From the IMG/VR virus record IMGVR_UViG_3300025764_000004, positions 10,010 through 74,009 of that record: DNA of 64,000 bases; one strand, written 5' to 3'. Position 1 is the stretch's first letter. Every line of letters begins with the position of its first letter. Positions 2,825-64,000 of the stretch are shown here, piece after piece. The position numbers were made by a program, and so were the translations under genes. Below the pieces are notes generated by a model. That model saw only the letters and a list, made by a program, of their open reading frames with translations, was not told where the DNA came from and made no database searches. This DNA comes from a virus.

Positions 2825-2915
2825 GCTGAGTTATCCTTATGTGGTAGAGGAATAGATCGTTGGAGTGTTTTCCCAAAGTGATCGAATGGGATGGGTTCGA
2901 ACCCCATACTCAGCT
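2825..2915 (+). ncRNA. tRNA-like RNA with non-canonical extended anticodon arm
   Basis: acceptor GCTGAGT/ACTCAGC, D stem TCCT/AGGA with GG in loop, T arm ATGGG-TTCGAAC-CCCAT; no 5-bp/7-nt anticodon arm found. Confidence 0.6.
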
Positions 2916-2937
2916 CAAGTTCATTCTAATTACGGAG

Positions 2938-3230
2938 TCTATTGTTTGGACAGGGGTTCGATTCCCCTCAGCTCCACTCTTTCGCCAAGGAAGATGCTGT
3001 TGGATAGCTCCCAACTGATTTTAGGAGATTACGGGGTAGCCTAAAAAAGAATGACAAAAGTATTTGCAGGAGTTGCATTGACGTTTGTACTGCATTTGCC
3101 CGTCCACGGGGCTGACTGGTTTTGACAACAATAAGGTGAGTAATTAGTGATTTAATTCACAAAGAATGTTCTGCCTACAACAGGCAATGATTATCAAATG
3201 AAAATGGCTGCCTAAGAGGTTGTCAAATTC
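2938..3230 (+). ncRNA. ssrA: circularly permuted (two-piece) tmRNA
   Basis: 3' part first: T arm AGGGG-TTCGATT-CCCCT plus CAGCTCCA (2952-2976); 5' part GGGGCTG at 3108-3114 pairs with it incl. G3.U70; P2 AACAATA/TATTGTT; tag GNDYQMKMAA* at 3183-3215. Confidence 0.85.
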
Positions 3231-3235
3231 GAGCG

Positions 3236-3260
3236 TGGGCTGCTTTAAAAGCCCATTTTT
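3236..3260 (+). terminator. intrinsic terminator
   Basis: TGGGCT/AGCCCA stem followed by T tract. Confidence 0.65.
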
Positions 3261-3458
3261 AAAAAGTATGCAAAAGAAAAATCAATATACTGATCTAGAA
3301 ATACAATATGAATTATATCCATGTTTGTATTATTATTTCAACTTCACTACTAACTGGTTAATGAGTTATAGAGTTGCCATGAAGATTGAATTAAACACAA
3401 ACTTGATTTACTTGAATTAATGTTACACAACAGGAACCAAAAGGATTAAAAAGTAAAA

Positions 3459-3470
3459 TTGTATAATAAC
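3459..3470 (+). promoter_or_regulatory. recurrent TTGTATAATA motif (putative phage middle promoter)
   Basis: also at 5246 and 17514, each shortly upstream of a start codon. Confidence 0.45.
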
Positions 3471-3484
3471 TAAAAAGCAAAATT

Positions 3485-3874
3485 ATGTATGTCATAAGGA
3501 AAGAATTTCAAGCTAGTTGTATGCACCATTTATTAGGATTGCCTGAGGATCACCCGTGCGGACGAGTTCATGGGCATAACTATGTTATAGTGGTTGAGTT
3601 AAGATCAGAGACTTTAAACAAAATTGGATTTGTCAAAGATTATGGGGAACTTAACGTTATCAAAGAGTGGATTGACAAAACAATGGATCATAGAGCTTTA
3701 AATGATGTATTCTCATTCAATCCAACAGCGGAAAATCTTGCAAAGCATTTATATGAAAGATTTGTAATGTTACTCGGGACTGATGGTATGTTTTTAAATG
3801 CTGTTGAAGTATCAGAGACACCCAAAACAAATTCACGTTTTTATAAAACATATAATGAGCACACAACTGATTAA
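3485..3874 (+). CDS. queD: 6-carboxytetrahydropterin synthase
   Basis: CGRVHGHNY, DH..LN, PTAEN.A, V.ETP motifs. Confidence 0.93.
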   Translation: MYVIRKEFQASCMHHLLGLPEDHPCGRVHGHNYVIVVELRSETLNKIGFVKDYGELNVIKEWIDKTMDHRALNDVFSFNPTAENLAKHLYERFVMLLGTDGMFLNAVEVSETPKTNSRFYKTYNEHTTD

Positions 3875-4610
3875 AGCATTTCCTGACTTTGTAAAAGAGG
3901 AGCCTTCAGATAGCTTTTTAAGAGTGTCTGAGTTCTTTTGCGACACAATTCAAGGGGAAGGAATACATATAGGACACCCGGCTACTTTCCTACGTTTTCA
4001 GGGCTGTGAATTATATTGTATCTATTGTGACACTAAAGAAGTTTGGAGGCAAGGCAACCCGTATTCATTCGATGAATTGTACACAATTATGTCTTCTGAA
4101 GGGTTGCCTAATAAATTACTTCATGGACAACATTTAGTCATAACAGGAGGGAGTCCTTTGTTGCAACAAAATAGTCTGTATTGGTTCTTGACAGGATTTA
4201 TAGCAAAGTTTGGATTTAAACCTTATATTGAAGTAGAAAACGAATGTGTAATCCCACCTAATTTAGGCCTGCAAGGTTTAGTAGATTGCTGGAACAACTC
4301 TCCAAAATTAGCATCAAGCGGTGTTTCCTCTTTTATCAGAATTAAAAATGAAGTTCTGTATAAAATGTCAAATCTGCAAAATAGTTGGTTCAAGTTTGTT
4401 ATAGGAAAAGATGACTGTTGGTGTGAGATAAACGATTTAATTGAAGCTGGATTGATTCGTAAAGAACAGGTTATACTTATGCCGGAAGGAGCTACTCGAG
4501 AAGAAATTGCAGAGCATAAAGAAGCGGTGTTAAATATGGCTATACAACATGGTGTAAGATATTCGGATCGTTTACATATTCAATTTTGGAACAGAGAAAT
4601 AGGTGTTTGA
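3855..4610 (+). CDS. queE: 7-carboxy-7-deazaguanine synthase (radical SAM)
   Basis: E.F..TIQGEG, F.R..GC.L.C.YCDT, VITGG.P, RLH. Confidence 0.92.
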   Translation: MSTQLIKAFPDFVKEEPSDSFLRVSEFFCDTIQGEGIHIGHPATFLRFQGCELYCIYCDTKEVWRQGNPYSFDELYTIMSSEGLPNKLLHGQHLVITGGSPLLQQNSLYWFLTGFIAKFGFKPYIEVENECVIPPNLGLQGLVDCWNNSPKLASSGVSSFIRIKNEVLYKMSNLQNSWFKFVIGKDDCWCEINDLIEAGLIRKEQVILMPEGATREEIAEHKEAVLNMAIQHGVRYSDRLHIQFWNREIGV

Positions 4611-4680
4611 AAAAGATGTGTATTAGTTGGTTTAGTTAGATCAAGAAACCTGGAAGTTTCTTGTGAGTTCTTTCAGGCTT

Positions 4681-4708
4681 ACCTCCTGTCCTTCGGGCAG
4701 GGGGTTTT
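4681..4708 (+). terminator. intrinsic terminator
   Basis: ACCTCCTGTCC-TTCG-GGCAGGGGGT then TTT. Confidence 0.6.
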
Positions 4709-5314: not shown

Positions 5315-6049
5315 ATGAAAGCAAAATTGAAAGACTTGCAAGTCGCTGCACAAGAATTGAATGCAATCGGGATCGACCCGGAAATTGATGCTGCATCTAC
5401 GGATGTAGAAGTATTGTTTGCTGGAATCAAAGATTCTTTGAGTGTTATTGAAGACACAGACGAGTTCACAACAAAGACTCAATCTGTTATTGACGAGGTT
5501 ACAGAAATTGTTGAAGCCGACAAAGTTCCTGAAGAAAAACCAAAACGTCAGGTGAAACCTGTTGCTGCTCCGGTTGTTGCTAAAAAAGAAGTGGTAGAAG
5601 AGGATGCAGAAACAACTCTTTATGACAAAGTAAAAGCTACCGCAAAGGTTGCTGATTTGAAAGCTATTGTTGAAGAAGAAGATGACTTCAAAAAGATCCG
5701 GAAAGCAATCGACACGTTCAAAAATCCATTTATCCTGAAACGTGCAATGTTGGACATTCTGGAAGAATCTGATCCGAAACTTGCTACAGGTGCTGCTGAA
5801 AAGAAAGCTGCAAAAACAGCAAAGAAAGAAGTAGATCCAAACGCTCCAAAGAAAAAGAATCCTTTTGTAAAGGTTGCCGGACAATTGTCTAATCTGGAAG
5901 TTGCTGAGAAGCTGTTATCAGAAAAAGCTGATCCGAAAACCATCTATGCTACATTTACCAAAGTGTATGAAGGCAAAGCTGGAGCAGACGAAAAGTACAT
6001 TAAAGGCCGAGCAGACATTTACATGAAAATTGCTGCAAAAGGTAAGTAA
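5315..6049 (+). CDS. Lys/Ala/Glu-rich protein, possible DNA-binding; C-terminal domain paralogous to 62798-63280
   Basis: own promoter-like motif and terminator; KKAAKTAKK linker; F..VY..K...D..YI..R..IY...A C-terminus. Confidence 0.7.
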   Translation: MKAKLKDLQVAAQELNAIGIDPEIDAASTDVEVLFAGIKDSLSVIEDTDEFTTKTQSVIDEVTEIVEADKVPEEKPKRQVKPVAAPVVAKKEVVEEDAETTLYDKVKATAKVADLKAIVEEEDDFKKIRKAIDTFKNPFILKRAMLDILEESDPKLATGAAEKKAAKTAKKEVDPNAPKKKNPFVKVAGQLSNLEVAEKLLSEKADPKTIYATFTKVYEGKAGADEKYIKGRADIYMKIAAKGK

Positions 6050-6123: not shown

Positions 6124-6666
6124 ATGACACCAGAAGTACTAATTTATAAAATGCTCTTAGAAATTGGAGAGGATCCTGACAGAGAAGGATTGCTAGAAAC
6201 TCCAAAACGAATTGTAAAATCCTGGAAAGAACTTTACGCAGGGTATAATCAAAATCCTGCAGACTTGTTTACTGTATTTGAAGCAGGAACATACAATCAG
6301 ATTGTACTTCTTAAGGATATTGAAGTTTATAGTCTTTGTGAACACCACGGTCTGCCGTTCTTTGGAAAAGCTCATGTTGCATACATACCAAATGAAAAAG
6401 TTATAGGTATTTCCAAATTAGCACGTCTAGTAGATGTGTTTGCAAGGAGAATGCAAATTCAAGAACGAATCGGAGAACAAGTTACTTCTGCATTAATGGA
6501 ATATCTCCAACCAAAAGGTGCCGCTTGTATTATCCAAGCCTGTCATATGTGTATGAGAATGCGAGGAGTCAACAAACAACAATCTACAATGATCACCTCT
6601 TCGATGAAAGGGGAATTTTTGACAAATTTATCAGCTAAACAAGAATTAATGTCAATAATAAAATGA
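6124..6666 (+). CDS. folE: GTP cyclohydrolase I
   Basis: GEDPDREGLLETPKR, SLCEHH, GISKLAR, QIQER, HMCMRMRG. Confidence 0.96.
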   Translation: MTPEVLIYKMLLEIGEDPDREGLLETPKRIVKSWKELYAGYNQNPADLFTVFEAGTYNQIVLLKDIEVYSLCEHHGLPFFGKAHVAYIPNEKVIGISKLARLVDVFARRMQIQERIGEQVTSALMEYLQPKGAACIIQACHMCMRMRGVNKQQSTMITSSMKGEFLTNLSAKQELMSIIK

Positions 6667-6992
6667 AAAAATTTGTAACTATACGAACACAGTTTCCGGC
6701 CGTACATTGTTGGCCTGATTGTAATATCCCATCAGTAGGGTATCTTGTATTTCCACATCGTCATTTATTTGTTATAAAAATGAGTTGGGAAGTGTCAGAT
6801 AATAATCGCCAAATAGAATTTATTTCTAAAAAACAAGATGTGAACAAATACATTGCAAAACATTTTTATGATAAAGATTTGCGTTCTATGTCTTGCGAAG
6901 ACATTGCAGAAAAACTGCTAAACAGATTCAATGCTGACTCTATATCTGTATTTGAGGACGGGGAGAATGGTTGTGAGATATTTAAAGACTAA
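6663..6992 (+). CDS. QueD-paralogous T-fold protein, DpdL-like (proposed CDG decarboxylase)
   Basis: H.W..., LxxxHRHxF, IEF, SCE..A, V.EDGENG; as I recall LxxxHRHxF is the DpdL signature (needs verification). Confidence 0.65.
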   Translation: MKKFVTIRTQFPAVHCWPDCNIPSVGYLVFPHRHLFVIKMSWEVSDNNRQIEFISKKQDVNKYIAKHFYDKDLRSMSCEDIAEKLLNRFNADSISVFEDGENGCEIFKD

Positions 6993-6994
6993 GA

Positions 6995-8344
6995 ATGAAA
7001 AAATCAATCAATATTATCGACCCGTGCTCCACTGAGCAAAATCGAGGTAGTTTCTGTTATTCACCATATTTGTGTTATAATGGAATGGCTTTCACTCTTG
7101 ATGCTAATTTAATCGAATCATTCCAACCAGAAGATTTAGACAGTATTCCTGATGCGGACATACAACTTGTTTGTCTGTGGTCCTATCCTCAAATAGAATC
7201 TTCGATGATGTTAGCTATGTCACTTCCGTTTATGTACGGTAAAGACAATGTCTATTTTGTTGGGTATTCACCATTAATCAAACAATTAGGTTTACATCAT
7301 ATTGAAGAAAAGTTAGGATTTGATCCATTACAAGATGAAGCATTCCTTGTTCATGCAATGAGTCGATACCCTGTAAATTATCACAAGTTTAAACGTTTGT
7401 TATTATCCGATTGTGATATGCATCTACGTCATTTAGATGCAGGAGAAAAGGTTTATCCACTGTTCACTTCATACGGTTGTGACCAAGGATGTTCATTTTG
7501 CCCAAGTACAACTAATTGCGGACGTAGGAGAATTGAAGTTCCTTTGTCTAAAGTTTGTACAATGTTAGATCAGTGTATCAAACAAGGCATAAAATCTATT
7601 CATTTTACAGATGAAGATTTCTTTTACGACATCAACCGGGCATTTAAAATCTTGTTAATGTTACAAGGAAAAGGAATGCATCTGATTGCATTAGGATCTG
7701 CTGAAGCTGTTTCTTACTTTATTGCTAAATATGGTGTTGACCCAATTAAAAATGCAGGTTTAGAAGTGATTGAGATTGGATTTGAATCAGGGGATGCAGA
7801 AGTGTCTAAGAAAATGGGACATGGTAAAAGTTTGTCTGCTTGCGAAGAACTTGCACAGATGCAAGATTGGATTCCATTTCGTATATTCTGGTTAGTACTT
7901 ACCTTCTTTCCAGGTGAGACAATTCATAGTTTAAATGAGACAGGACGCTTCATGTTAAAGTACGGATTTGAACAAGAAGAGGTGATGGGGAGGCTTCGTA
8001 CAAATGGAACAAAGATTGGCCTTGGGCAATTTATGCAATGGTATGATGGTATAGCTATGGCTAAATCTTTAGAAAAAAATGGAATAAAATTAACGCAAAG
8101 GCCTGTAAGATTGATTCCTTCGTATGTTCCAAATTCGTTTTTGGAAAGTATAATTACTGAAATACACGAAGAAGCTATTGAAAAAACAATACCTTATTTA
8201 GAGCTATACAATACTGCTTTGCCTAATAAACCTCTTGAAATCGGCAGAAAAATAAGCTATTATTTAGAAGATATGCCTATATACGGTTACATACGCACAT
8301 TAACTGCCTTAGCAATATTAGCCAGAGGAGGAGTCATACGATGA
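6995..8344 (+). CDS. radical SAM enzyme (B12-dependent-class-like layout)
   Basis: TSYGCDQGCSFC (CxxxCxxC), F.DEDF, IGFESG, PGET; about 150-aa N-terminal extension. Confidence 0.85.
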   Translation: MKKSINIIDPCSTEQNRGSFCYSPYLCYNGMAFTLDANLIESFQPEDLDSIPDADIQLVCLWSYPQIESSMMLAMSLPFMYGKDNVYFVGYSPLIKQLGLHHIEEKLGFDPLQDEAFLVHAMSRYPVNYHKFKRLLLSDCDMHLRHLDAGEKVYPLFTSYGCDQGCSFCPSTTNCGRRRIEVPLSKVCTMLDQCIKQGIKSIHFTDEDFFYDINRAFKILLMLQGKGMHLIALGSAEAVSYFIAKYGVDPIKNAGLEVIEIGFESGDAEVSKKMGHGKSLSACEELAQMQDWIPFRIFWLVLTFFPGETIHSLNETGRFMLKYGFEQEEVMGRLRTNGTKIGLGQFMQWYDGIAMAKSLEKNGIKLTQRPVRLIPSYVPNSFLESIITEIHEEAIEKTIPYLELYNTALPNKPLEIGRKISYYLEDMPIYGYIRTLTALAILARGGVIR

Positions 8345-8646
8345 ACGCTAAACTCAAATCTTTTGCATCGAATCTGATGCTAATAACAGGTATCATTACA
8401 AGTATTGCCGGGGTTATTGAAACTATCGGTAAACTGGTATTGTCTTTCCGCACCAAGAATATCCCAGAGGTTAAATCAATCAGTAAGTCAATAATCCCGG
8501 AGTATGGCGACTTGCCCTCGGCTCCTCCTACTATTGAACAGGTAAGTTTCTTTGCTGAGTATCGAGGAATAATATTGATAGTTACCGGAATATTGGTTAT
8601 TGCATTTTCATTGTGGATTATCAAACGGTTAAAAACTAGAATATGA
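8341..8646 (+). CDS. two-TM membrane protein
   Basis: two hydrophobic segments; ATGA overlaps on both sides. Confidence 0.55.
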   Translation: MNAKLKSFASNLMLITGIITSIAGVIETIGKLVLSFRTKNIPEVKSISKSIIPEYGDLPSAPPTIEQVSFFAEYRGIILIVTGILVIAFSLWIIKRLKTRI

Positions 8647-9668
8647 GAACAGTAATATTAAACATTCCAATAGAACCTATTGAAGATAGATATAGTGTAC
8701 AATGGGATAAATGGTTTCAGAGTGCTTTTCATGAGAATCCTGATTTAGAACTTATTAGTGTGCATGGAGGAGTTACTTCAGGAAGTATCAGACAAGGTAG
8801 TTTTTTAGATGTCATAGAAACGAATCTATATAAAAATAAACAGTTAGACAAGATTCTGCATTATCTAAACACTTATAAAGATGATCATAAACTCATTTTA
8901 TTTTTCCATGATTTGTGGAATCCTGCACTTACATCAATAGCGTACGTTCGGGATGGGATGGGTTGGAAAAATCTACGTATATGCGGATGTCTTCATTCAG
9001 GAAGTTATGACAAGTTTGATTTTTTAAACAAACAAGGAATGACTAAGTGGGCAGCTAGAATAGAAGAAGGATGGTGTAAGATTGTAGATAAAATATTTGT
9101 AGCTACTCATTATCATGATATTTTACTACGCTCAAAAAGAGTATTATTAGATGATTGGGATAAAATTGTTGTAACAGGATTCCCTCTTTATGACGATTTT
9201 CAACAACCTCATAATATAATGGATGACGAAAGTATTCCTATTATAGTATTTCCTCATCGTTTAGACAGTGAAAAGAATCCTCAAATGTTTGATGAATTAA
9301 AAAGCAGACTACCAAGTTATAGATTCATCAAAACAAAAGAAAACTGCAAGACTAAAGAATCATATTATCGTTTATTAAAATCTTCTGATGTTGCTGTTAG
9401 TTTTGCAGATCAAGAAACCTGGGGTATAGCAATGCAAGAAGCAGTTATTTGCGGAGCTCTTCCGATGTGTCCTAATCGTTTGTCTTATACTGAAATGTAC
9501 CCATCTGCTTTTTTATTTGAGAATTTTGAAGAGTGTGTCAACAAAATAAAATGGTTATTAGCACATGAGAATCAAGCTAATGAATTTCTACAAAATACCA
9601 AAAATACAATTCTCCGTAAAGGCAGAGAAGCAATTCCAAATATGATTAAAGAAATTGAAAAACTATGA
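8643..9668 (+). CDS. GT-B fold (GT4-like) glycosyltransferase
   Basis: VFPHRL..EK.P, QETWGIAMQEA (E-x7-E), P.RLSY.E. Confidence 0.85.
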   Translation: MRTVILNIPIEPIEDRYSVQWDKWFQSAFHENPDLELISVHGGVTSGSIRQGSFLDVIETNLYKNKQLDKILHYLNTYKDDHKLILFFHDLWNPALTSIAYVRDGMGWKNLRICGCLHSGSYDKFDFLNKQGMTKWAARIEEGWCKIVDKIFVATHYHDILLRSKRVLLDDWDKIVVTGFPLYDDFQQPHNIMDDESIPIIVFPHRLDSEKNPQMFDELKSRLPSYRFIKTKENCKTKESYYRLLKSSDVAVSFADQETWGIAMQEAVICGALPMCPNRLSYTEMYPSAFLFENFEECVNKIKWLLAHENQANEFLQNTKNTILRKGREAIPNMIKEIEKL

Positions 9669-9802
9669 AAACAGACATATATCCAGATGATGAAGATTAT
9701 GAAGAAATAATCAAAGATGATTATGAAGATGATAGTGAATGGGAGGAAGAAGATGAAGATAAAGAAGATGGCTATGGTATAACTTCAGATGATGAATTAT
9801 GA
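9665..9802 (+). CDS. 45-aa hyperacidic microprotein
   Basis: MKTDIYPDDEDYEEIIKDDYEDDSEWEEEDEDKEDGYGITSDDEL; ATGA overlaps with both neighbours. Confidence 0.7.
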   Translation: MKTDIYPDDEDYEEIIKDDYEDDSEWEEEDEDKEDGYGITSDDEL

Positions 9803-10878
9803 AAAAGAATATTTTTGATTTCAAAGTGTTTATAGATTGTGGGGCTCCTTCGCTCTACAATAAACTGTCTCGAAATGATTTATCTGGTGGGCGAGGAGTG
9901 ATGGGCACAAAGATGTCGGAACGTAAATTTGATGATTACTCCTATGTAGACAAACCAGAATATGCTACTTATCGAGAAGCTTATATTGAATTTATGTTAA
10001 AGCATAAGGATGAAGTTGATGTTTATTCAAACTTAGATGTTATCAACAATCCTAAACTGACATACAGAAATCAAAAGATAATCGAAGAAGCAGGGTTACA
10101 TCCAATTCCAGTTTGGCACTTAGGCAATGATCCGAAATGGTTAGAAAGGTATGTTAAAGAATACGATTATATTGCTATCGGAGGACTTGTACCTAACCCG
10201 ACATCTGTACTGATTCCTTTATTAGATGCCTTATTTAAAGAACACTTGCTAGACAGCAAAGGGTACCCGAAAGTTAAGCTTCACGGCTTTGCCTGCACTT
10301 CATTGCCACTGATGGAACGCTTCCCATGGTTTTCAGTCGACTCGGCTACTTGTAGAAAACTTGCAAACTTCGGAAGTATTGTTTTGCCAGATTACGGTAA
10401 ACAGAATCCTGTTAGTACATTTCAAGTGTCTTCTCGTACAAAAAGAATACCAGAAGAAAAAGTAGGAATGTTTAATCTTGAGGATGCTCCTGCATCAGAC
10501 TGGTTAACAGATATGTCAAGTCAAGTTAGGAAAGCATTTGATTTAAGATTAGATAAATACGGAATGACTATACAACAATTAGGGGACAGTATTATTCACA
10601 GAGTTGTCTGGAATTATTTAATCTTCTCTGAAGTAATACAAAAGACTGTTCCTGCATGGCCGTGGAGTATGCAGACTAGACAATGTAAATATGAGTCTGC
10701 ATATTGTGAGGAAGATCTCGGTTACATGACTTTCTATTTTGCCGGAATACTTAGCAAAAGTGAAGAGAATACATTCTGGAAAGGTGTATCCCATCCTATT
10801 ACTGAACGATTAAAAGGTTCACTTCGATCCTTTTTCTATGCACAGAACGCTGAATATGTACTTAGTTTAAAAAAGTAA
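9799..10878 (+). CDS. dpdA: TGT-fold DNA guanine transglycosylase, DpdA-like
   Basis: FIDCGA.S (DSGA/G motif), NLDVI, PVWH, IAIGGL, LHGFA, SVDSAT; in fol/que cluster. Confidence 0.78.
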   Translation: MKKNIFDFKVFIDCGAPSLYNKLSRNDLSGGRGVMGTKMSERKFDDYSYVDKPEYATYREAYIEFMLKHKDEVDVYSNLDVINNPKLTYRNQKIIEEAGLHPIPVWHLGNDPKWLERYVKEYDYIAIGGLVPNPTSVLIPLLDALFKEHLLDSKGYPKVKLHGFACTSLPLMERFPWFSVDSATCRKLANFGSIVLPDYGKQNPVSTFQVSSRTKRIPEEKVGMFNLEDAPASDWLTDMSSQVRKAFDLRLDKYGMTIQQLGDSIIHRVVWNYLIFSEVIQKTVPAWPWSMQTRQCKYESAYCEEDLGYMTFYFAGILSKSEENTFWKGVSHPITERLKGSLRSFFYAQNAEYVLSLKK

Positions 10879-13295: not shown

Positions 13296-13504
13296 TGACA
13301 AAGAAACAATTCGACATACAACAATGGGAATATACCTCAGCCTACTATGGGGTGCATGAAATAGCTGTACGGAATTTTCCTGATTACTTAAATCAACAAG
13401 GCCAATTAGGATGGGAACTAATTCAAATAATTATTGAGAGAATGAGAAATGATCCTAATGAACATGCAAACTATACATTTCTATTTAAAAGAAAAATAAA
13501 CTAA
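13295..13504 (+). CDS. DUF4177-like small protein
   Basis: WEY...LN..G..GWEL....FKR. Confidence 0.65.
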   Translation: MTKKQFDIQQWEYTSAYYGVHEIAVRNFPDYLNQQGQLGWELIQIIIERMRNDPNEHANYTFLFKRKIN

Positions 13505-14724
13505 TGTCTGGATTTTTCACTATAAAAGAAACAGAATCAAAAGATCGTCCAGGAGGCAAGAAATTCACTTGCATAGCCTGTGGAGCTTATCGAAACTGCA
13601 CATCACCTAGAATGGAACCATACGGCGAGTTTCGTAAAAAGATTCTCATTATAGGTAGTGGTTTAGAAAAAGTGGATGATTCAGCAGGTGTTCCTTTTCA
13701 AAGTAGATACGGTAAATTCTTAGAAAAAACATTGCAAAGTTTAGGTATTGATTTATTTGAGGATTGCTTGACAATGAATTCAGTCCATTGCTGTATAAAA
13801 GATGAGGATGAGGATTTAATAGCACCAACTTCGTACAACATAGAATGCTGCCGAAAATCAACACTTCAAACAATAGAGCAGTACAAGCCTCACTTAATAA
13901 TCCTCCTCGGGAATTCAGCGTTATTCAGCCTCATAGGACACCGTTGGAAAAAAGATCTAGGAACCATAGATAAGTGGAGAGGATGGGCAATCCCAGACCA
14001 AGACTTTAAATCGTGGATATGCCCGACATACGATCCTAAGCAAGTGATGAACAGCAAAGGAGACATTATGTTTACGATATGGAAACTTGACTTAGAACTA
14101 GCCTTATCTAAGCTTCAAGAATCTATCTATCTGAATGCGGAGCCTAACATTATGACACTTGAGGAAAAGGACTTGCCTGTACTTAGTACAATCAAAAACG
14201 GAAATATTGCGTTTGACTATGAGACTACTGGCCTAAAATGTCATGCTGCTGGACACCGAATTGTTTCTTGTTCCGTAGCATACGATGAAAATAATGTCTA
14301 TGTCTTTATGATGCCTGAAACAAACAAAGGAAGACGTCCATTTTTAGAGTTGCTTGCGGATCCTATGGTTGGTAAAATAGCTCAAAATATGAAGTTTGAA
14401 CATACCTGGTCTTGTGTTCGTTTAAGACAGCCTGTCGTTAATTGGGTTCATGACACTATGTTAATGACACATTTATTTGATAATCGTCCAGGTGTATCTG
14501 GTTTAAAATTTCAAACTTATGTGCAATTTGGTGTCGTAGATTATGACAGTGAAGTCTCTCCTTATTTAAAATCTGTAGAAGAAAAGAATGCTAATGCTTT
14601 AAATCGAATCATGGAATTAGTTGCAAAGCCTGGAGGAAAAGAATTGTTACTGAAATATAACGCTTATGATTCGATTTACGAATACCGTTTATCTGAAATA
14701 CAAAATAAAATTATAGAACAATGA
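13504..14724 (+). CDS. DNA polymerase N-terminal subunit: family-4 UDG-like domain plus 3'-5' exonuclease
   Basis: CxxC Fe-S cysteines, P..IILLG..A, PTYDP; Exo I FDYETTGL, QNMKFE, HDTM, YNAYDS. Confidence 0.82.
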   Translation: MSGFFTIKETESKDRPGGKKFTCIACGAYRNCTSPRMEPYGEFRKKILIIGSGLEKVDDSAGVPFQSRYGKFLEKTLQSLGIDLFEDCLTMNSVHCCIKDEDEDLIAPTSYNIECCRKSTLQTIEQYKPHLIILLGNSALFSLIGHRWKKDLGTIDKWRGWAIPDQDFKSWICPTYDPKQVMNSKGDIMFTIWKLDLELALSKLQESIYLNAEPNIMTLEEKDLPVLSTIKNGNIAFDYETTGLKCHAAGHRIVSCSVAYDENNVYVFMMPETNKGRRPFLELLADPMVGKIAQNMKFEHTWSCVRLRQPVVNWVHDTMLMTHLFDNRPGVSGLKFQTYVQFGVVDYDSEVSPYLKSVEEKNANALNRIMELVAKPGGKELLLKYNAYDSIYEYRLSEIQNKIIEQ

Positions 14725-58420: not shown

Positions 58421-59962
58421 TTAAGTGATACGAGTTGCTAATCTACGTGCTGTCAAATGATTGAATGCCCCTGACGAAGCATCCACCTGATCTTTATATG
58501 TTCCCAATGGAAAAAATCTATGTTCTTCAATATATGAAGTATTCCAAGGTGCTGACAATAAAGAAACTGCTCCATTATTCACCTGAACTGAGTAAGGATC
58601 TGCTCTATATGCCTTATCTCCTGTTGGTCGATCAGCATAACAAGCAAACCCGGCTAAATGCCGTATTGTTGATTCGGCACTTTCTTTGCCTCCAGAGCCA
58701 GGCTCCTGCTCTATGTAGATGTTTACATGCCTGCCGTCTAATCGGGCAACTTCGAGGATAATTCGCTCCCGTTCATCGGTGCTCCACTGCCCCCGCTTTA
58801 CATCATGCACAAAAAACCGTTCTCTTGTTAATTGTGACATTTTTACACCAACTGTGAAAGCACCTCCGCCAGCCGTTCCAGCCTTATCCCAATAACGGTA
58901 GGTTCTTAAAATCTCATTTGCTGGAGGTTCTACGGTTGCTATCCCAAAATGATCGACATGAAACATACCTCCGCCAACTGGGATAGGATTCTGTCCTATC
59001 TGTCCAGCATACCCGTATTGACCTAGATCAGCTTCTAGATCTTTCAACACTTTCCAATTCAGTCGTTTCGGATCTAATAAATTGTTGACATAATATTCTG
59101 CTAATTCTGGGGGCTGGACCTGATCTTTGAAATTGAGTATTTCACCAGGTAAAGAAATGTTCTTGACATTCTTTTTCTTCTTCGCAAGAACATGACCGGT
59201 AGGATCATCTTGGTGAAGTCTTTGCATGATGCCAATGATGACTGAAATTCCTTTGTCAGTTTTACGTGTTGGTAAGGTTCGGTCAATCCAAGCATTAGCC
59301 GTTTCCCGTTCTTTATCTGAAACTGATTGAGTTGGATTCAACGGATCGTCCCATATTAGAATATCACCGTGAAATCCCATCAATGTACCTCCAACTGAAG
59401 TTGAATATCTATTACCTCCTTGAAGAATTGTATTACGTCCTGGACGCCCTGGTACAGGTTCTTCTTTAACTATTTTGAAGTTTGATTTGGTATCTTTGTC
59501 ATCTCTGATTGCAATTTCTGGATATAATGTTTTAAATTGATCCGAGCGAATCAAATCCCTGCAATATTCTGCTGATTCTAAACTCAATGCAGCTGAATAT
59601 GAAGCAGTGATAAATCTCATCCAGTACCATCGTGTCCAACACCAAGCTGGAAACATTATAGAAAAGACAATGGTTTTTGATGTACCTGGAGGAACATTTG
59701 CAATCAGATCATACAATTTTTCCTCTCTATCACCTACCCGTTCTGCAATCACTTCCAATTCTTTGCAGAATAATTCTAAATGCCAGTTTCCGACAAAGGT
59801 CTGATTACAAATAACAGGCCAGAACCATTGAACAAAATGATACAGTGAACGATTATTCAATTCACGAACGACCAGAAGAGGATTCTTCATCGCAACTTGA
59901 ACTCTTTCTATCTTGGAAAGTTGTTCAGTGCTCACTTCTTCTGTCATTGTATCAAATTCCAT
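58421..59962 (-). CDS. terL: terminase large subunit
   Basis: NVPPGTSKT, G..GD...DDP, IMQRLH.DD, YWD.A, EQEPG.GGK, DQVDA. Confidence 0.93.
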   Translation of the reverse strand: MEFDTMTEEVSTEQLSKIERVQVAMKNPLLVVRELNNRSLYHFVQWFWPVICNQTFVGNWHLELFCKELEVIAERVGDREEKLYDLIANVPPGTSKTIVFSIMFPAWCWTRWYWMRFITASYSAALSLESAEYCRDLIRSDQFKTLYPEIAIRDDKDTKSNFKIVKEEPVPGRPGRNTILQGGNRYSTSVGGTLMGFHGDILIWDDPLNPTQSVSDKERETANAWIDRTLPTRKTDKGISVIIGIMQRLHQDDPTGHVLAKKKKNVKNISLPGEILNFKDQVQPPELAEYYVNNLLDPKRLNWKVLKDLEADLGQYGYAGQIGQNPIPVGGGMFHVDHFGIATVEPPANEILRTYRYWDKAGTAGGGAFTVGVKMSQLTRERFFVHDVKRGQWSTDERERIILEVARLDGRHVNIYIEQEPGSGGKESAESTIRHLAGFACYADRPTGDKAYRADPYSVQVNNGAVSLLSAPWNTSYIEEHRFFPLGTYKDQVDASSGAFNHLTARRLATRIT

Positions 59963-60467: not shown

Positions 60468-61118
60468 CTATGCTGATTTTTGTTGTTCTGCAAATACTGT
60501 TGGAAGTGATTTAATTCCGATCTTCTTCATCAACTGAAGTTCTTCCATTGACATATCCGACATATCAAACTTGTTATTGACCTGTATATTGACATTCTGT
60601 GTTGTCTGTGATTTGACTGATTCTGCCCACAATGCTGGAAATCTGACTCTGAGCAAATACTGAGCAGCTCTATCATTTGGTTGAATATGTCGAGTCATTA
60701 TCTTTTCTGACTTTAGGTTCTTGATCATTTCACCTGTCAACTTATCTTTTCTCATTTCATACTCAACAGCTCGTTCTTCAACCTCATACCCAATGGCCTG
60801 TTTATATAATGATGAAACCAATGCTTGACCATTCAGTTCACGACCTTGATATAAGGCCGTCGATAACTCTTTGGACAATTGAATATATCTTTGTAATGTT
60901 GCTGATTGAATCCCGTAGAAGACAGCAATCTGTTCATTCGTCAATCCAAACTGAGCTAAGCAACGAATTTCTTCAAGCATCCGGTCTTGGAAACGGCCTT
61001 TCTGTTCTTTCCATGGAACTGTCTCGTCAAGACAATAATCATTTTCTAATGGAAGAGTTCTTGTATTGATTAACTCTACGACGATCGGTTCTTCTATCTT
61101 TCTTCTTGTACGTTCCAT
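60468..61118 (-). CDS. terS: terminase small subunit
   Basis: HTH G.T..QIA...GI...TL; V.SLY..A.GY; P...A..Y.L..R.P..W. Confidence 0.82.
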   Translation of the reverse strand: MERTRRKIEEPIVVELINTRTLPLENDYCLDETVPWKEQKGRFQDRMLEEIRCLAQFGLTNEQIAVFYGIQSATLQRYIQLSKELSTALYQGRELNGQALVSSLYKQAIGYEVEERAVEYEMRKDKLTGEMIKNLKSEKIMTRHIQPNDRAAQYLLRVRFPALWAESVKSQTTQNVNIQVNNKFDMSDMSMEELQLMKKIGIKSLPTVFAEQQKSA

Positions 61119-61346: not shown

Positions 61347-61544
61347 TTTCTAAGCACTTAAAAATATTTGAAATTTTTCTTATACTACTTTCTTAAATGG
61401 GTACTCTGATTGAACTACTTTTTACTACTTAAACACTAAATGTATCATTTACTTTGATATATTCTTCTTCTATACTACTATGTTTGACTGCGAATGTAAT
61501 GACTAAGTGCTTTTCTAAGCTGTGATATATATTTGAAATTTTTC
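61347..61544 (+). repeat. bipartite direct repeat TTTCTAAGC-N8-ATATTTGAAATTTTTC (61347-61379, 61512-61544)
   Basis: two copies 165 bp apart in the non-coding gap upstream of terS. Confidence 0.75.
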
Positions 61545-62023
61545 GATCGCATTCAGTTTTGTACAAACTAAACATAAAGCATTCAAACGCAAACGTTAGT
61601 GCTGCAAGCGTTACAGCGTGTTACCAATAATATAAATATGTACATGTATGTTTTGTTGCAAAGTATATAACAAATAGCACATGTACTGTGTATTAAGTAG
61701 TTAGCACGTTTTAACTTTACTTTTATGTTATGCTATTGTGCTAAAGTATTAGTTTACAGCACGTTACGCGTACGCTTGCGTAAATTGCGCGCAAAAATTA
61801 TGCTATAAACGTAAAGCTATATATGTAACTATGTGCATACTATTGTAAGTAAGTTTTAGCATGTAAACTTTTGCGTATATGCAAATATTTAAGCTGCTTT
61901 GTTTGTGTTATGTGTTTATAAACATTTTTTTAATATTTGTTTTAAAATGTGCAACTTTTTTTAGTGCTATACGTTTAATACAGCAATGTGTGCAACGTAG
62001 CACATATTTAACAAACTTACATT

Positions 62024-62185
62024 ATGTTACACAATTACACAACAGCACAATTACAGCACATGTACATTAATAGTATTGCAGCAGCAAAACTTAACAACAG
62101 TAAACGTATTACTAAATTAAGTGTACACACTTTAAAAGTATTAGCAAAGCAATATTTTATACAGTTAGTTAATTACACATTTTAA
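62024..62185 (+). CDS. 53-aa basic protein lacking D/E/G/P/W
   Basis: MLHNYTTAQLQHMYINSIAAAKLNNSKRITKLSVHTLKVLAKQYFIQLVNYTF; preceded by AAACTTACATT. Confidence 0.7.
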   Translation: MLHNYTTAQLQHMYINSIAAAKLNNSKRITKLSVHTLKVLAKQYFIQLVNYTF

Positions 62186-62197
62186 CACTTTACAATT

Positions 62198-62332
62198 ATG
62201 CAAAACTTTACACACACAACAGCGCAGCATAGTAATACAATAGTTACTGTATGCTTTTTTACATTTGTTTTAGTATTTATTGCATGTTGCTACTTAGTAG
62301 TAATTAATGCAACAGTTATTAACGTTTTATAA
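62198..62332 (+). CDS. 44-aa single-TM protein lacking D/E/G/P/W
   Basis: MQNFTHTTAQHSNTIVTVCFFTFVLVFIACCYLVVINATVINVL; 12-nt spacer upstream. Confidence 0.7.
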   Translation: MQNFTHTTAQHSNTIVTVCFFTFVLVFIACCYLVVINATVINVL

Positions 62333-62344
62333 AAACTTACAATT

Positions 62345-62584
62345 ATGCAAACAGTACAATTTTACAACAGCAACACAGCAACAGCAGCACAATTATTAAG
62401 TGCTAAAAATGCAGCAGCAGCAAACAAAGCAATTATAACAGCAGCAAATTTGCGCGTTATTTATTTGCAGCAACACTACTTTAATTTGCTTGCTAATACA
62501 AAAGCAAGCAAAGCACTAAAAAATGCTTATTTTTTAGCTTACAATGCACAAATACATAGTTTACGTTTATGCAATGCTTTTTAA
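62345..62584 (+). CDS. 79-aa Ala-rich protein lacking D/E/G/P/W
   Basis: 12-nt spacer AAACTTACAATT; GCA/ACA codon periodicity. Confidence 0.78.
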   Translation: MQTVQFYNSNTATAAQLLSAKNAAAANKAIITAANLRVIYLQQHYFNLLANTKASKALKNAYFLAYNAQIHSLRLCNAF

Positions 62585-62596
62585 AAATATACTATT

Positions 62597-62758
62597 ATGT
62601 TAATACAAAACTACAATAATTTTACAGCTATGCTATATAAAAATTTTAGCAATGTTAATACACACATTGCAGCTAGTTTAATAATAAAGCGTTATATACA
62701 TTTACGCAAACATGTAAAGCATTACACACAATTACACAATACAAAAAAACAGCACTAA
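62597..62758 (+). CDS. 53-aa His/Lys-rich protein lacking D/E/G/P/W
   Basis: MLIQNYNNFTAMLYKNFSNVNTHIAASLIIKRYIHLRKHVKHYTQLHNTKKQH; 12-nt spacer upstream. Confidence 0.65.
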   Translation: MLIQNYNNFTAMLYKNFSNVNTHIAASLIIKRYIHLRKHVKHYTQLHNTKKQH

Positions 62759-62797
62759 ATTTATTAACATTTTAAAAACTTACAAAAACTTAAAAAA

Positions 62798-63280
62798 ATG
62801 CAAAACACAAACAAACAAGCTGTAAACGTTACAAAAGTAACAACAGCACAAAGCACAGTTAGCAACAGCAAAGCAGCTATTTTAGCACGCAAAGCGTTAA
62901 ATTTAAGCAATGCAACAGCACGCACAGCAACAGCAAAAAATTTGCTTGTAACGCGCAATGTAATTAACACACTTACAACAGCACGCAAAGCAAAAAGCGC
63001 AAAAAAAGCTATGCAAGTACAAAGCACAGCAACAGCACACACAACAAAGTATAATAGCATTTATGCAAATGTAACTAGCTTGCACATGTTAGCAGCTATG
63101 CTTATTGTAAACAAACAAACAGTAACAAGCGTTACAAGTGTACAAGCGTTTATAGCAGCGTATGCACTTAAAAGCGTTACAAACGTTAACTTTATTGCTG
63201 TGCGTATGCAAATTTATTTTACGCACGCTAATACTTTGCAGCTTGTAGCAAAATTACAAGCTAAATTAGTAACAGTTTAA
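62798..63280 (+). CDS. 160-aa basic protein lacking D/E/G/P/W; paralog of C-terminus of 5315-6049
   Basis: long ORF, shared F-x3-Y-x2-K-x6-[YF]I-x2-R-x2-IY-x3-A pattern. Confidence 0.85.
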   Translation: MQNTNKQAVNVTKVTTAQSTVSNSKAAILARKALNLSNATARTATAKNLLVTRNVINTLTTARKAKSAKKAMQVQSTATAHTTKYNSIYANVTSLHMLAAMLIVNKQTVTSVTSVQAFIAAYALKSVTNVNFIAVRMQIYFTHANTLQLVAKLQAKLVTV

Positions 63281-63291
63281 CATTTGTAATT

Positions 63292-63624
63292 ATGCAAAAT
63301 ACAACTATTTACGCAAACAAGTTAGCTGCAAATGTAGCAGCTAACATAGCATTAAGCGCAGCGCAGCAAATTGTACTTAATGCAAAGCGTGCAAAACGTA
63401 TGCAACAGCAAAGCATTGTTATTTTAGCGCAAAGCAGCAAGCAAGCAAAGCAATTAGCAACAGCAAAAAAAACGTACATGTGTGCAATTGTAACTATACA
63501 GCAACAGTACGTTAATGTACACAATATTGCAATATTGCTAACAGCGTACACAACAGCAATGCAAAGCGCAAAAAACGCTTATTTTGCAGCAAAGCAAAGC
63601 ATACTAACAGTTAGTAACAATTAA
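63292..63624 (+). CDS. 110-aa helical protein lacking D/E/G/P/W
   Basis: 11-nt spacer ending AATT-ATG; shares KNAYF with 62345-62584. Confidence 0.8.
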   Translation: MQNTTIYANKLAANVAANIALSAAQQIVLNAKRAKRMQQQSIVILAQSSKQAKQLATAKKTYMCAIVTIQQQYVNVHNIAILLTAYTTAMQSAKNAYFAAKQSILTVSNN

Positions 63625-63653
63625 GCGTTTAAACACGTTTAAAATAGCTTACA

Positions 63654-63682
63654 AAGCACTATTAATTTAGTGCTTATTTTTT
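63654..63682 (+). terminator. intrinsic terminator built without GG/CC
   Basis: AAGCACTA-TTAATT-TAGTGCTT then ATTTTTT. Confidence 0.7.
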
Positions 63683-63807
63683 GTGCAAAAATTTAAAAAA
63701 TAACATAACAAATATTATTTGCAAAAGTAAATTTTAAAGTAATAAAGCAATTTTAAAAACAAAAAAGCAACAGCAAAGCAAAAAGCAATTTTTAAAACTA
63801 TTTACAA

Positions 63808-64000
63808 ATGTTAAACAAAAAACAAAATAGCACAGTTAAGCAACAGCACAAAAATTTAAAGCTAGTTTGTAAATTTACGTTTACAGCTAGTTTTTTACAT
63901 TTAAGCTATGCAATAGCACGCTTTAAAAATGTACGCTTAAACAAGCTTAAACAGCGTACAAATTATGTTAATATAAAATGCAGTATAGTACAGTATAGTA
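63808..64000 (+). CDS. basic protein lacking D/E/G/P/W, truncated by window end
   Basis: MLNKKQNSTVKQQHKNLKLVCKFTFTASFLHLSYAIARFKNVRLNKLKQRTNYVNIKCSIVQYS.. open to the end. Confidence 0.6.
   Translation, partial: MLNKKQNSTVKQQHKNLKLVCKFTFTASFLHLSYAIARFKNVRLNKLKQRTNYVNIKCSIVQYS

Follow-up and report, generated by a model that had tools for sequence, protein, structure and literature searches.

What could remove every guanine that precedes a purine from more than two kilobases of a phage genome, on both strands and in genes and spacers alike? The question is raised by one end of the stretch of DNA analysed here (64,000 nucleotides, called the window below, which covers positions 10010-74009 of one contig of 74,009 bp), which belongs to an uncultured, tailed phage that probably infects Bacteroidota. 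The first-pass annotation had described positions 61625-64000 as a zone with no GA, GG, TC or CC at all, in which G and C were still common, preceded by a last TC at 61583 and a last CC at 61624, within a genome otherwise rich in such steps. Our dinucleotide counts agree on all these points. The zone contains 0 GA, 0 GG, 0 TC and 0 CC, with 322 G and 394 C. Besides the TC and the CC just mentioned, which we recovered at the same positions, the final forbidden steps before it are a GG at 61400 and a GA at 61545, and each of the other 500-bp bins of the window holds roughly 45-135 of these steps.

The tract in its genome

The first 127 bp of the contig repeat its last 127 bp, i.e., it is circular in the assembly, and the tract therefore goes on for 75 bp past the window (genome 128-202; positions preceded by "genome" are those of the contig, all others those of the window). 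The right boundary, for which dinucleotide counts had been proposed as a check, thus lies at genome 202 after circularisation, and the total length is 2451 bp. Over this length not one G followed by a purine (GR) or its complement (YC) was observed, versus an expectation of 366 if the base composition of the region is used and of 458 if the frequency in the rest of the genome is used, while the GC content only goes from 35% to 30%. The next longest GR/YC-free stretches (genome 414-560, 581-633, and 692-751) are all directly downstream, and outside the tract and this downstream zone the maximum is 47 bp. We found no published description of such a tract in the literature. The tract adjoins the gene of the terminase small subunit (terS, 60468-61118, minus strand; phrog_309, 2e-19), which is divergent from it; the large subunit lies at 58421-59962, also on the minus strand.

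Genes and candidate promoters

Two copies of a 33-nt direct repeat are found on the plus strand before the tract. The first (61347-61379, 3' end ATATTTGAAATTTTTC) is promoter-like and the second (61512-61544) has a TAnnTTTG box of the Bacteroidota type at 61528; we consider them candidate early promoters P1 and P2. The GA-free zone of the plus strand starts at 61546, immediately 3' of the second copy, which was the sole notable item in sigma-70 and TAnnTTTG promoter scans that did not rise above chance. The tract itself has six packed plus-strand ORFs with start contexts in common: 62024-62185 (53 aa), 62198-62332 (44 aa, conserved start context TTACAATTATGCAAA, hydrophobic product), 62345-62584 (79 aa, conserved start context), 62597-62758 (53 aa), 62798-63280 (160 aa), and 63292-63624 (110 aa, conserved start context). 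An intrinsic-terminator-like hairpin with a T run (63654-63685, plus strand) closes this unit, and a further plus-strand ORF (63808-64000) crosses the window end and reaches 66 aa on the circularised genome. Judging the order of expression from position in the sequence, the tract would be a promoter-proximal, immediate-early cassette. Its six ORFs, from the small 53-aa one onwards, are written in an alphabet of 15 residues with D, E, G, P, and W absent, five amino acids that are lost because a 2-bp step is banned. None of the tract proteins matched a PHROG family, although the restricted alphabet may mask homology; Rfam gave no match, and neither did isolated phages by blastn and megablast.

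The 160-aa protein belongs, in recoded form, to a family of paralogues found across the clade. The syntenic genome G002 encodes its orthologue at the same position with an ordinary composition (44% identical over 120 aa, E about 1e-20), and the D, E, and G of this orthologue have become N, A, S, Q, and V in the tract protein. A clear paralogue is encoded at genome 1747-2385. A distant one, recognisable at the profile level only (5315-6049, plus strand), lies between queE and folE within the deazaguanine cluster described below; the profile link is weak (E 6e-5, small database) and BLASTP between the two products gave no alignment. A pattern search of IMG/VR with the 160-aa protein retrieved no relatives, the G002 orthologue fell in one cluster only in a set of 5.8 billion proteins, and the Atlas returned nothing usable. 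The AlphaFold model of the family predicts only a helical C-terminal domain of 55 residues (pLDDT about 80), for which the best PDB matches had a Z of 5.5 or less, and no function can be read from the model.

Selection at the level of DNA

The tract is real coding DNA under selection at the DNA level. The 861 bp outside the six ORFs are likewise free of forbidden steps, the codon junctions have 0 of them versus 37±4 (minimum 23) in 2000 synonymous-codon shuffles, residues of the orthologue have been replaced, and relatives have bans of their own at the same locus (see below). All of this bears out the earlier proposal that selection excludes the 2-bp step GpR. As every single site has been purged, codon junctions and non-coding DNA included, the cost seems to be paid per site, as expected of covalent modification or cleavage. 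Whatever reads the GR/YC steps would thus do so site by site, and the likeliest candidate is the guanine modification of the phage itself.

Several simpler causes were discarded. Avoidance of UV dimers, already dismissed in the first-pass annotation, is contradicted by the abundance of TT and CT in the tract and by a flank polarity opposite to the one expected from template-strand photoproducts. Guanine-oxidation hot spots (GG, GA) do not account for the CA/TG and GC bans of some relatives. Saturating hypermutation by a deaminase does not fit the intact ORFs, the many replacements that are transversions and the small drop in GC content. Avoidance of Shine-Dalgarno-like words leaves TC/CC and the non-coding DNA unexplained, and a recent foreign insertion is at odds with the orthologue found at the same place in G002.

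Strand polarity downstream

The rule had also been described as strand-symmetric and acting on dsDNA, not on codons. This holds for the 2451-bp core and its non-ORF DNA, but the flanks are strand-specific. For about 0.7 kb downstream the template strand alone stays GR-free, so that the mRNA is free of YC: along genome 414-1120 the coding strand has one TC and one CC (31 and 17 expected) versus 34 GA and 17 GG. Past this region the depleted steps return gradually. The related contigs L060 and L070 show the same downstream polarity. The message strand is without GA and GG for 2.9 kb. Between the core and the polar zone there is a 210-bp patch (genome 203-413) that is rich in YC, with 40 C and 11 G, and on the minus strand a promoter-like box (genome 574) coincides with the end of the plus-strand GR-free zone at 560. 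Given the strand specificity of the flanks, it is probable that transcription, and not duplex DNA alone, is involved when the motif is read. A template strand of this polarity is equally an mRNA without YC, and for this reason it does not separate a reader of DNA from a reader of RNA.

Related phages

Relatives were found with the terminase large subunit as anchor; the SNF2 helicase, used as a second anchor, led to a single locus that was GC-rich, unrelated and devoid of a tract. At the same locus, L060, from another metagenome, has 19 GR/YC steps of 455 expected in 2.6 kb. In L070 it is GG/CC that is depleted (14 observed, 131 expected; GA/TC 142 and 178), as in L057 (GG/CC 1 and 76). L046 lacks CA/TG (5 and 185) with normal GR/YC (363 and 341), and L037 lacks GC (2 and 31.5). 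G002 has a weak, strand-specific depletion of template-strand GA only, i.e., TC is banned and CC is kept. Since the relatives ban different dinucleotides, the specificity of the agent would vary by lineage.

The co-occurrence of tracts with DpdA, a check suggested along with the original observation, was supported in part. All the tract-bearing relatives that could be tested (G002, G006, G009, G010, and G011) have DpdA, and the complete genomes G003 and G004 have neither DpdA nor tract. However, G007 and G008 have DpdA and no clear tract, G002 has only its weak GA depletion in spite of the same cluster and a DpdA 76% identical, and a GA-free island was looked for in the genome of phage iggy, whose GA motif is proven, and none was found; these cases count against modification as the cause. 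The observed/expected ratio of GR-containing 6-bp palindromes is 0.77 in this phage and 0.87 in G002 versus 0.48 and 0.37 in the DpdA-less G003 and G004, which is weak evidence for modification because the hosts may differ.

The predicted modification gene cluster

On the plus strand the window encodes QueD (PTPS, 3485-3874; PF01242, 2e-27), a QueE-like radical SAM enzyme (3798-4610; phrog_2076, 1e-44), FolE (GTP cyclohydrolase I, 6124-6666; PF01227, 3.8e-70), a DpdL-like T-fold protein (6663-6992) with the signature LVFPHRHLF (PMC10516641), another radical SAM enzyme (6995-8344), a glycosyltransferase-like protein (8643-9668, below the Pfam cut-off), and a DpdA-like DNA guanine transglycosylase (9799-10878; phrog_887, 3.7e-41). 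The Pfam TGT model misses this DpdA, and the relatives were searched with phrog_887 instead. Its nearest isolate proteins are a set of phage DpdA/TGT-like proteins at about 31% identity, among them the GA-specific DpdA of iggy (31% over 77% of the length). Of the components of a DpdA-dependent 7-deazaguanine system, DpdA, FolE, QueD, and QueE are present, and a PF06508 search of the whole genome for QueC, needed for preQ0, gave nothing. The absence of QueC together with the DpdL-type signature suggests a branch (CDG or 7-deazaguanine) like that of the Cellulophaga phage phiST, which has a QueC-less DpdL-type pathway and replaces all G (PMC10516641).

A proposed cassette free of the phage's own motif

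The explanation that we put forward, on which our own opinion is evenly divided, is that an immediate-early cassette has lost all the sites at which the phage would modify guanine in its own, motif-specific manner. GR would be this motif, the specificity of DpdA being read here from the tract itself. In its favour, the banned steps match published guanine-modification motifs, namely GA for iggy (PMC10484667), GA and GGC, with GRH from MEME, for CAjan (PMC7544227), and GA and/or GG for PA5oct (PMC12191111). FolE, QueD, QueE, and the DpdL-like protein would produce a 7-deazaguanine base, which the radical SAM enzyme and the glycosyltransferase may elaborate further and which DpdA would swap into DNA wherever G precedes a purine. 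About half of the G in virion DNA would then carry the modification (about 51%, or about 32% were the motif GA only). The exception would be the cassette, which lacks GA and GG in both strands and would therefore stay ordinary DNA, and which could be transcribed immediately by the host RNA polymerase from the incoming genome. As to why unmodified DNA would be needed, we infer that the polymerase might stall at a modified base in the template strand or as a result of host attack on that base, by glycosylases or modification-dependent nucleases leaving abasic sites or nicks. The requirement would wane away from the promoter, from both strands clean to the template only and finally to neither.

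As a rule, polymerases have little difficulty in copying plain 7-deaza-dG templates, so a direct block would require a bulkier adduct or the host attack. Host glycosylases and END nucleases do attack 7-deazaguanine or hypermodified phage DNA; END nucleases are active at an early stage of the infection, and inhibitors directed at them are known from some phages. Two further points count against modification: avoiding a motif would be useless if all G were replaced as in phiST, and the transcription of the remaining modified genome is left without explanation.

Alternative explanations

The location of the tract at a contig end and junction could suggest an assembly chimera, a synthetic sequence or a sequencing bias. 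We find this hardly credible, as the 127-bp overlap is inside the tract and the circle closes cleanly, the ban recurs at the corresponding locus of the independent contig L060 from another sample, the syntenic G002 has an orthologous gene at the matching position, and both regular gene starts and a terminator are present in the tract. A biological alternative would be an external reader, i.e., a host or phage nuclease, a deaminase, a CRISPR PAM reader or similar acting on unmodified GR/YC, which would oblige the first-entering and first-used DNA to be free of targets. The purge is per-site and strand-symmetric, YC is the preferred context of some cytosine deaminases, the tract adjoins terS and so a possible packaging end, and lineage-specific bans could follow host-specific defences. 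T5-like phages resist R-M, CRISPR, and Ssp if their FST region has no recognition sites (PMC10644984). However, shielding 2.45 of 74 kb would be useful only with a two-step or slow entry of the DNA, and the contig is circular in the assembly; a template-only flank is unexpected for a duplex nuclease or a PAM, and both the match to known DpdA motifs and the presence or absence of DpdA in relatives would be accidental. Besides, we know of no bacterial defence with a 2-bp specificity for GR/YC steps. On balance we regard an external reader as unlikely, albeit worth serious consideration.

Evasion of Rho seems to us improbable. Early transcripts without UC or CC would prevent the host Rho from loading until a phage antiterminator is made, and the symmetric core would need transcripts from both strands. 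Rho recognises 5'-YC through its primary binding clefts and is a silencer of foreign DNA (PMC12360218). The logic of rut sites is matched by a message strand of early genes without UC/CC, and in the downstream flank this strand is free of TC and CC only. Moreover, the C-rich, G-poor patch resembles a rut site between two units, and the minus-strand promoter-like box stands where the plus-strand GR-free zone ends. But Rho requires arrays of YC, and purging each site over 2.45 kb exceeds what evasion needs. A ban of this origin would be confined to YC on the message strand, whereas here it is absolute and strand-symmetric over the core; the 2.9 kb without GA/GG on the message strand would be left unaccounted for unless long antisense RNA matters, and the tract mRNA still has more C than G. 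Nor do the bans of the relatives follow YC: in L046 it is CA/TG that is banned and YC is normal, L070 keeps TC, G002 keeps CC and L037 bans GC.

Implications

Returning to modification as the agent, the pattern could be general. Phages with motif-specific hypermodification would keep a "boot sector", an immediate-early cassette without their own motif and with proteins rewritten in a reduced alphabet, in which the banned dinucleotide would reveal the motif and the polarity the template-strand bases to be avoided. We hold this generalisation tentatively, as a claim that is just short of an even call. If true, the motifs would be GR in this phage and L060, GA in G002, GG in G006 and L057, TG in L046, and GC/GY in G010, and the motifs of unidentified DNA modifications would become readable from uncultured phage genomes, which would aid the choice of restriction enzymes, the interpretation of nanopore signals and the prediction of host defences. 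It would also mean that modification is costly in the first minutes of infection and is avoided by recoding whole proteins, a rare instance of protein composition (D, E, G, P, and W all absent) giving way visibly to a rule at the DNA level. The tract would further mark the immediate-early genes of unculturable phages, prime candidates for anti-defence and host-takeover functions. Even with Rho or a nuclease as the agent, this would be a clean natural experiment in DNA or RNA read two letters at a time.

Comparison with known systems

The closest likeness is to the DpdA systems of CAjan, iggy, and PA5oct, which have the same two-letter steps, with an iggy-type DpdA and FolE, QueD, and QueE found here. 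In contrast to them, this phage has no QueC, adds the DpdL-like protein, the radical SAM enzyme and the glycosyltransferase, and its modification is predicted from genes; a keyword search of the three papers returned no mention of a motif-free gene cassette. The first-step-transfer DNA of T5 and BF23 is similar in being first-used DNA without targets of defence systems (PMC10644984) and in its small early genes of unassigned function. However, T5 avoids host recognition sites of 4-8 bp and its proteins are not recoded, whereas the ban here is on 2 bp. The T5 region is a terminal repeat with a leading end and an injection stop, versus a circular assembly with a 127-bp overlap and a tract beside terS. 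T5 has the pre-early genes A1, A2, and dmp, versus tract proteins without PHROG matches (homology that the restricted alphabet may mask), and the likely target here would be the phage's own modification. The Pbunaviruses F8 and 14-1 hypermodify thymine at TG, and L046 bans exactly CA/TG, an analogy only, drawn with a fragment of 15.6 kb.

Selection also strips short words from phage DNA in the avoidance of restriction sites and palindromes. That avoidance is genome-wide, concerns words of 4-6 bp and leaves proteins intact, while the ban described here is local, on dinucleotides, and overrides protein composition. Genome-wide avoidance of palindromes is evident among the relatives themselves, with CTAG at 0 of 90 in G003 and GATC at 7 of 124 in G006.

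Extent of the tract and the rule it obeys

Dinucleotide counts matched exactly the absence of GA, GG, TC and CC from window 61625-64000 claimed by the first-pass annotation (0 of each), with G and C still common, as it had said (322 and 394, respectively), and the last TC and CC before the tract at 61583 and 61624; the last GA lies at window 61545 and the last GG at 61400. The remainder is indeed rich in such steps, with roughly 45-135 in each 500-bp bin of the window outside the tract. The window covers positions 10010-74009 of the single 74,009-bp virus contig. This contig closes on itself, the same 127 bp standing at its start and at its end, and once it is circularised the tract extends from genome position 71634 to 202, i.e., 2451 bp. 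Over this length not one forbidden step (GR, G followed by a purine, or its complement YC) was observed, where the local base composition predicts 366 and the frequency elsewhere in the genome 458; the longest free stretch outside the tract neighbourhood is 47 bp. An artefact is a very unlikely source of this tract.

The tract is placed between the terminase small-subunit gene terS (window 60468-61118, minus strand) and the start of the plus-strand early/replication genes. It contains six tightly packed plus-strand ORFs (window 62024-63624), three of them sharing the start context TTACAATTATGCAAA, with a hairpin-plus-T terminator after the unit at window 63654. The six products are written in a 15-amino-acid alphabet from which D, E, G, P and W are absent. 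The non-coding part is equally clean, none of the four steps occurring in the 861 bp of tract within the window that the six ORFs do not cover. Likewise, 0 of 499 codon junctions form a forbidden step, whereas synonymous-codon shuffles drawing on allowed codons only, i.e., with the synonymous set restricted beforehand, gave 37±4 (minimum 23 in 2000 trials). Both results uphold the earlier proposal that selection acts on DNA and not on codons. The tract is real coding DNA obeying a DNA-level rule.

A gene recoded in place

The largest tract ORF (window 62798-63280) encodes a 160-aa protein homologous (44% identity over 120 aa, E about 1e-20) to the product of ORF 3858-4442 of G002, the closest large relative, which is syntenic throughout; that ORF is of ordinary composition and occupies the same position. 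Homology extends to genome ORF 1747-2385 (E 1e-9). At conserved positions, the tract protein has N, A, S, V and Q where the G002 protein has G, E and D. Since a homologue of normal composition stands at the same syntenic position, the gene is old, vertically inherited and recoded in place. In two other relatives (G006 and G001), the protein that is largest in the tract has a paralogue of normal composition encoded elsewhere in the G006 genome; a common motif is DGKNPKY at normal composition, DSKNVLY where GG/CC is banned and DSKNAKY where GR is banned.

The studied genome has three copies of this paralogue family: that of the tract, genome 1747-2385 (2 kb downstream of the tract) and a distant one at window 5315-6049, inside the deazaguanine cluster. 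Copies occur in all relatives, including those lacking the DNA guanine transglycosylase DpdA, and the family has a small helical C-terminal domain.

Tracts in relatives

We scanned 80 IMG/VR loci whose terminase large subunit is 57-70% identical to that of the studied phage, and every tract found was located between terS and the early genes. The banned step varied. GR/YC is banned in L060, from another sample (19 observed/455 expected over 2.6 kb, perfect for 925 bp). GG/CC is banned in G006 (locus L070; 14/131, GA/TC 142/178), whose tract ORFs lack G, P and W, and in L057 (1/76). In L046 the ban falls on CA/TG (5/185) with normal GR/YC (363/341); of its five exceptions, one is the ATG that starts a 123-aa ORF without C, H or Q. 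This ban is missing from its close relatives L026 and L031, so the trait changes quickly between relatives. GC is banned in G010 (locus L037; 2/31.5), with AC/GT also low (25/109), and the last 640 bp of G009 are GR-free on the plus strand. In G002 the avoidance concerns GA alone and is strand-specific, affecting what are presumably the template strands of two divergent units (GA 0/34 in 3012-3499; TC 6/46 in 3800-4700); CC and GG occur at almost normal levels. Its 488 bp without GA on one strand (L087:3012-3499) are TC-rich and fall in the 1.1-kb intergenic region from terS to the first early gene; L040 has a mirror image of this feature, TC-free at 8306-8846.

Edges and strand polarity

On the plus strand, the GA-free zone begins at window 61546, immediately after the second of two copies of a 33-nt promoter-like repeat (window 61347-61379 and 61512-61544). 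The downstream decay of the ban is ordered. Only GA/GG are absent from genome 203-413, a stretch rich in C (40) and poor in G (11); in 414-1120 there are one TC and one CC (31+17 expected) alongside 34 GA and 17 GG; and from 1120 to about 2700 TC/CC return gradually. With TC/CC lost from the coding strand, the template strand of the plus-strand genes stays GR-free for longer than the coding strand, or, equivalently, the mRNA is without UC or CC. The tracts of L060 and L070 are followed by the same polarity. The symmetric core might represent two overlapping opposed transcription units, each under a template-strand rule.

The 210-bp block directly past the tract (genome 203-413; 24 TC/CC, zero GA/GG) could be a rut-like site, could belong to a leftward transcript, or could act as a timer made up of template-strand modification sites. 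The plus-strand GA/GG-free zone ends (560/578) where the minus strand has a TAnnTTTG promoter-like box, at genome 574.

Possible association with guanine modification

The genome carries QueD, QueE, FolE, a T-fold protein with the DpdL signature as defined in PMC10516641, a radical SAM enzyme, a glycosyltransferase-like protein and a DpdA-like transglycosylase; among isolates, the homologues closest to the latter (about 31% identity) include the DpdA type of phage iggy. QueC was not found anywhere in the genome. This QueC-less, DpdL-type pathway, with its radical SAM enzyme and glycosyltransferase (window 6663-6992 and 6995-9668; 52-67% identical in G002), may make an undescribed 7-deazaguanine derivative. 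Published modification motifs are GA for iggy (PMC10484667), GA and GGC for CAjan (PMC7544227) and GA and/or GG for PA5oct (PMC12191111), while Pbunaviruses are described as hypermodifying thymine at TG (PMC12191111). The iggy genome has no GA-free island.

Within the clade, neither of the two complete DpdA-less genomes (G003 and G004) has a tract; DpdA and some form of tract occur together in G002, G006, G009, G010 and G011, and G007 and G008 have DpdA and no clear tract. Avoidance of GR-containing 6-bp palindromes is weaker in the studied phage and G002 (O/E 0.77 and 0.87) than in G003 and G004 (0.48 and 0.37), which fits protection of GR sites, as weak evidence only because hosts may differ. 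Genome-wide, CTAG is strongly avoided in G003 (0/90), G004 (23/151) and G010 (4/102), and GATC in G006 (7/124) and G008 (11/176); the studied phage avoids neither.

Possible explanations

The chances are about even that the phage has cleared its own modification motif from the cassette, allowing immediate transcription of the incoming genome. We favour this reading because the purge leaves no single site, the banned steps match known DpdA motifs, bans differ between lineages and the controls lacking DpdA have no tract. Transcription would then need unmodified DNA, and the adduct is possibly bulky, as the presence of a radical SAM enzyme and a glycosyltransferase would suggest. Alternatively, host enzymes attacking modified G could leave lesions that would stall the polymerase on the template strand; glycosylases of this kind are known (10.1101/2025.10.29.685425), and END nucleases, with phage-encoded inhibitors, are described in PMC12191111. 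The nearest precedent in logic is the first-step-transfer region of T5/BF23, which must be without defence targets (PMC10644984).

An external reader of unmodified GR/YC DNA would be a less probable cause. Avoidance of YC in transcripts exposed to Rho (PMC12360218) is more doubtful still: it accounts for the downstream flank, but fails on the absolute, symmetric ban and on the non-YC bans in relatives.

Our literature search found no published account of dinucleotide-banning tracts. The studied case contributes a perfect ban in a small 74-kb phage, a single clade whose members ban different steps, control genomes that lack DpdA, and a pair of orthologues in which the recoding can be seen directly.

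Other genome features

A small protein containing sigma-70 region 2 (PF04542, 1.1e-11) is encoded upstream of the window, at genome 7891-8361 (L120:7891-8358), suggesting that the phage redirects the host's RNA polymerase once the early phase is over. ARAGORN predicted a permuted tmRNA at window 2885-3306 (tag GNDYQMKMAA). Immediately upstream of the gene for the family A DNA polymerase, window 13504-14724 encodes a fusion of a UDG-superfamily domain with a 3'-5' exonuclease domain.
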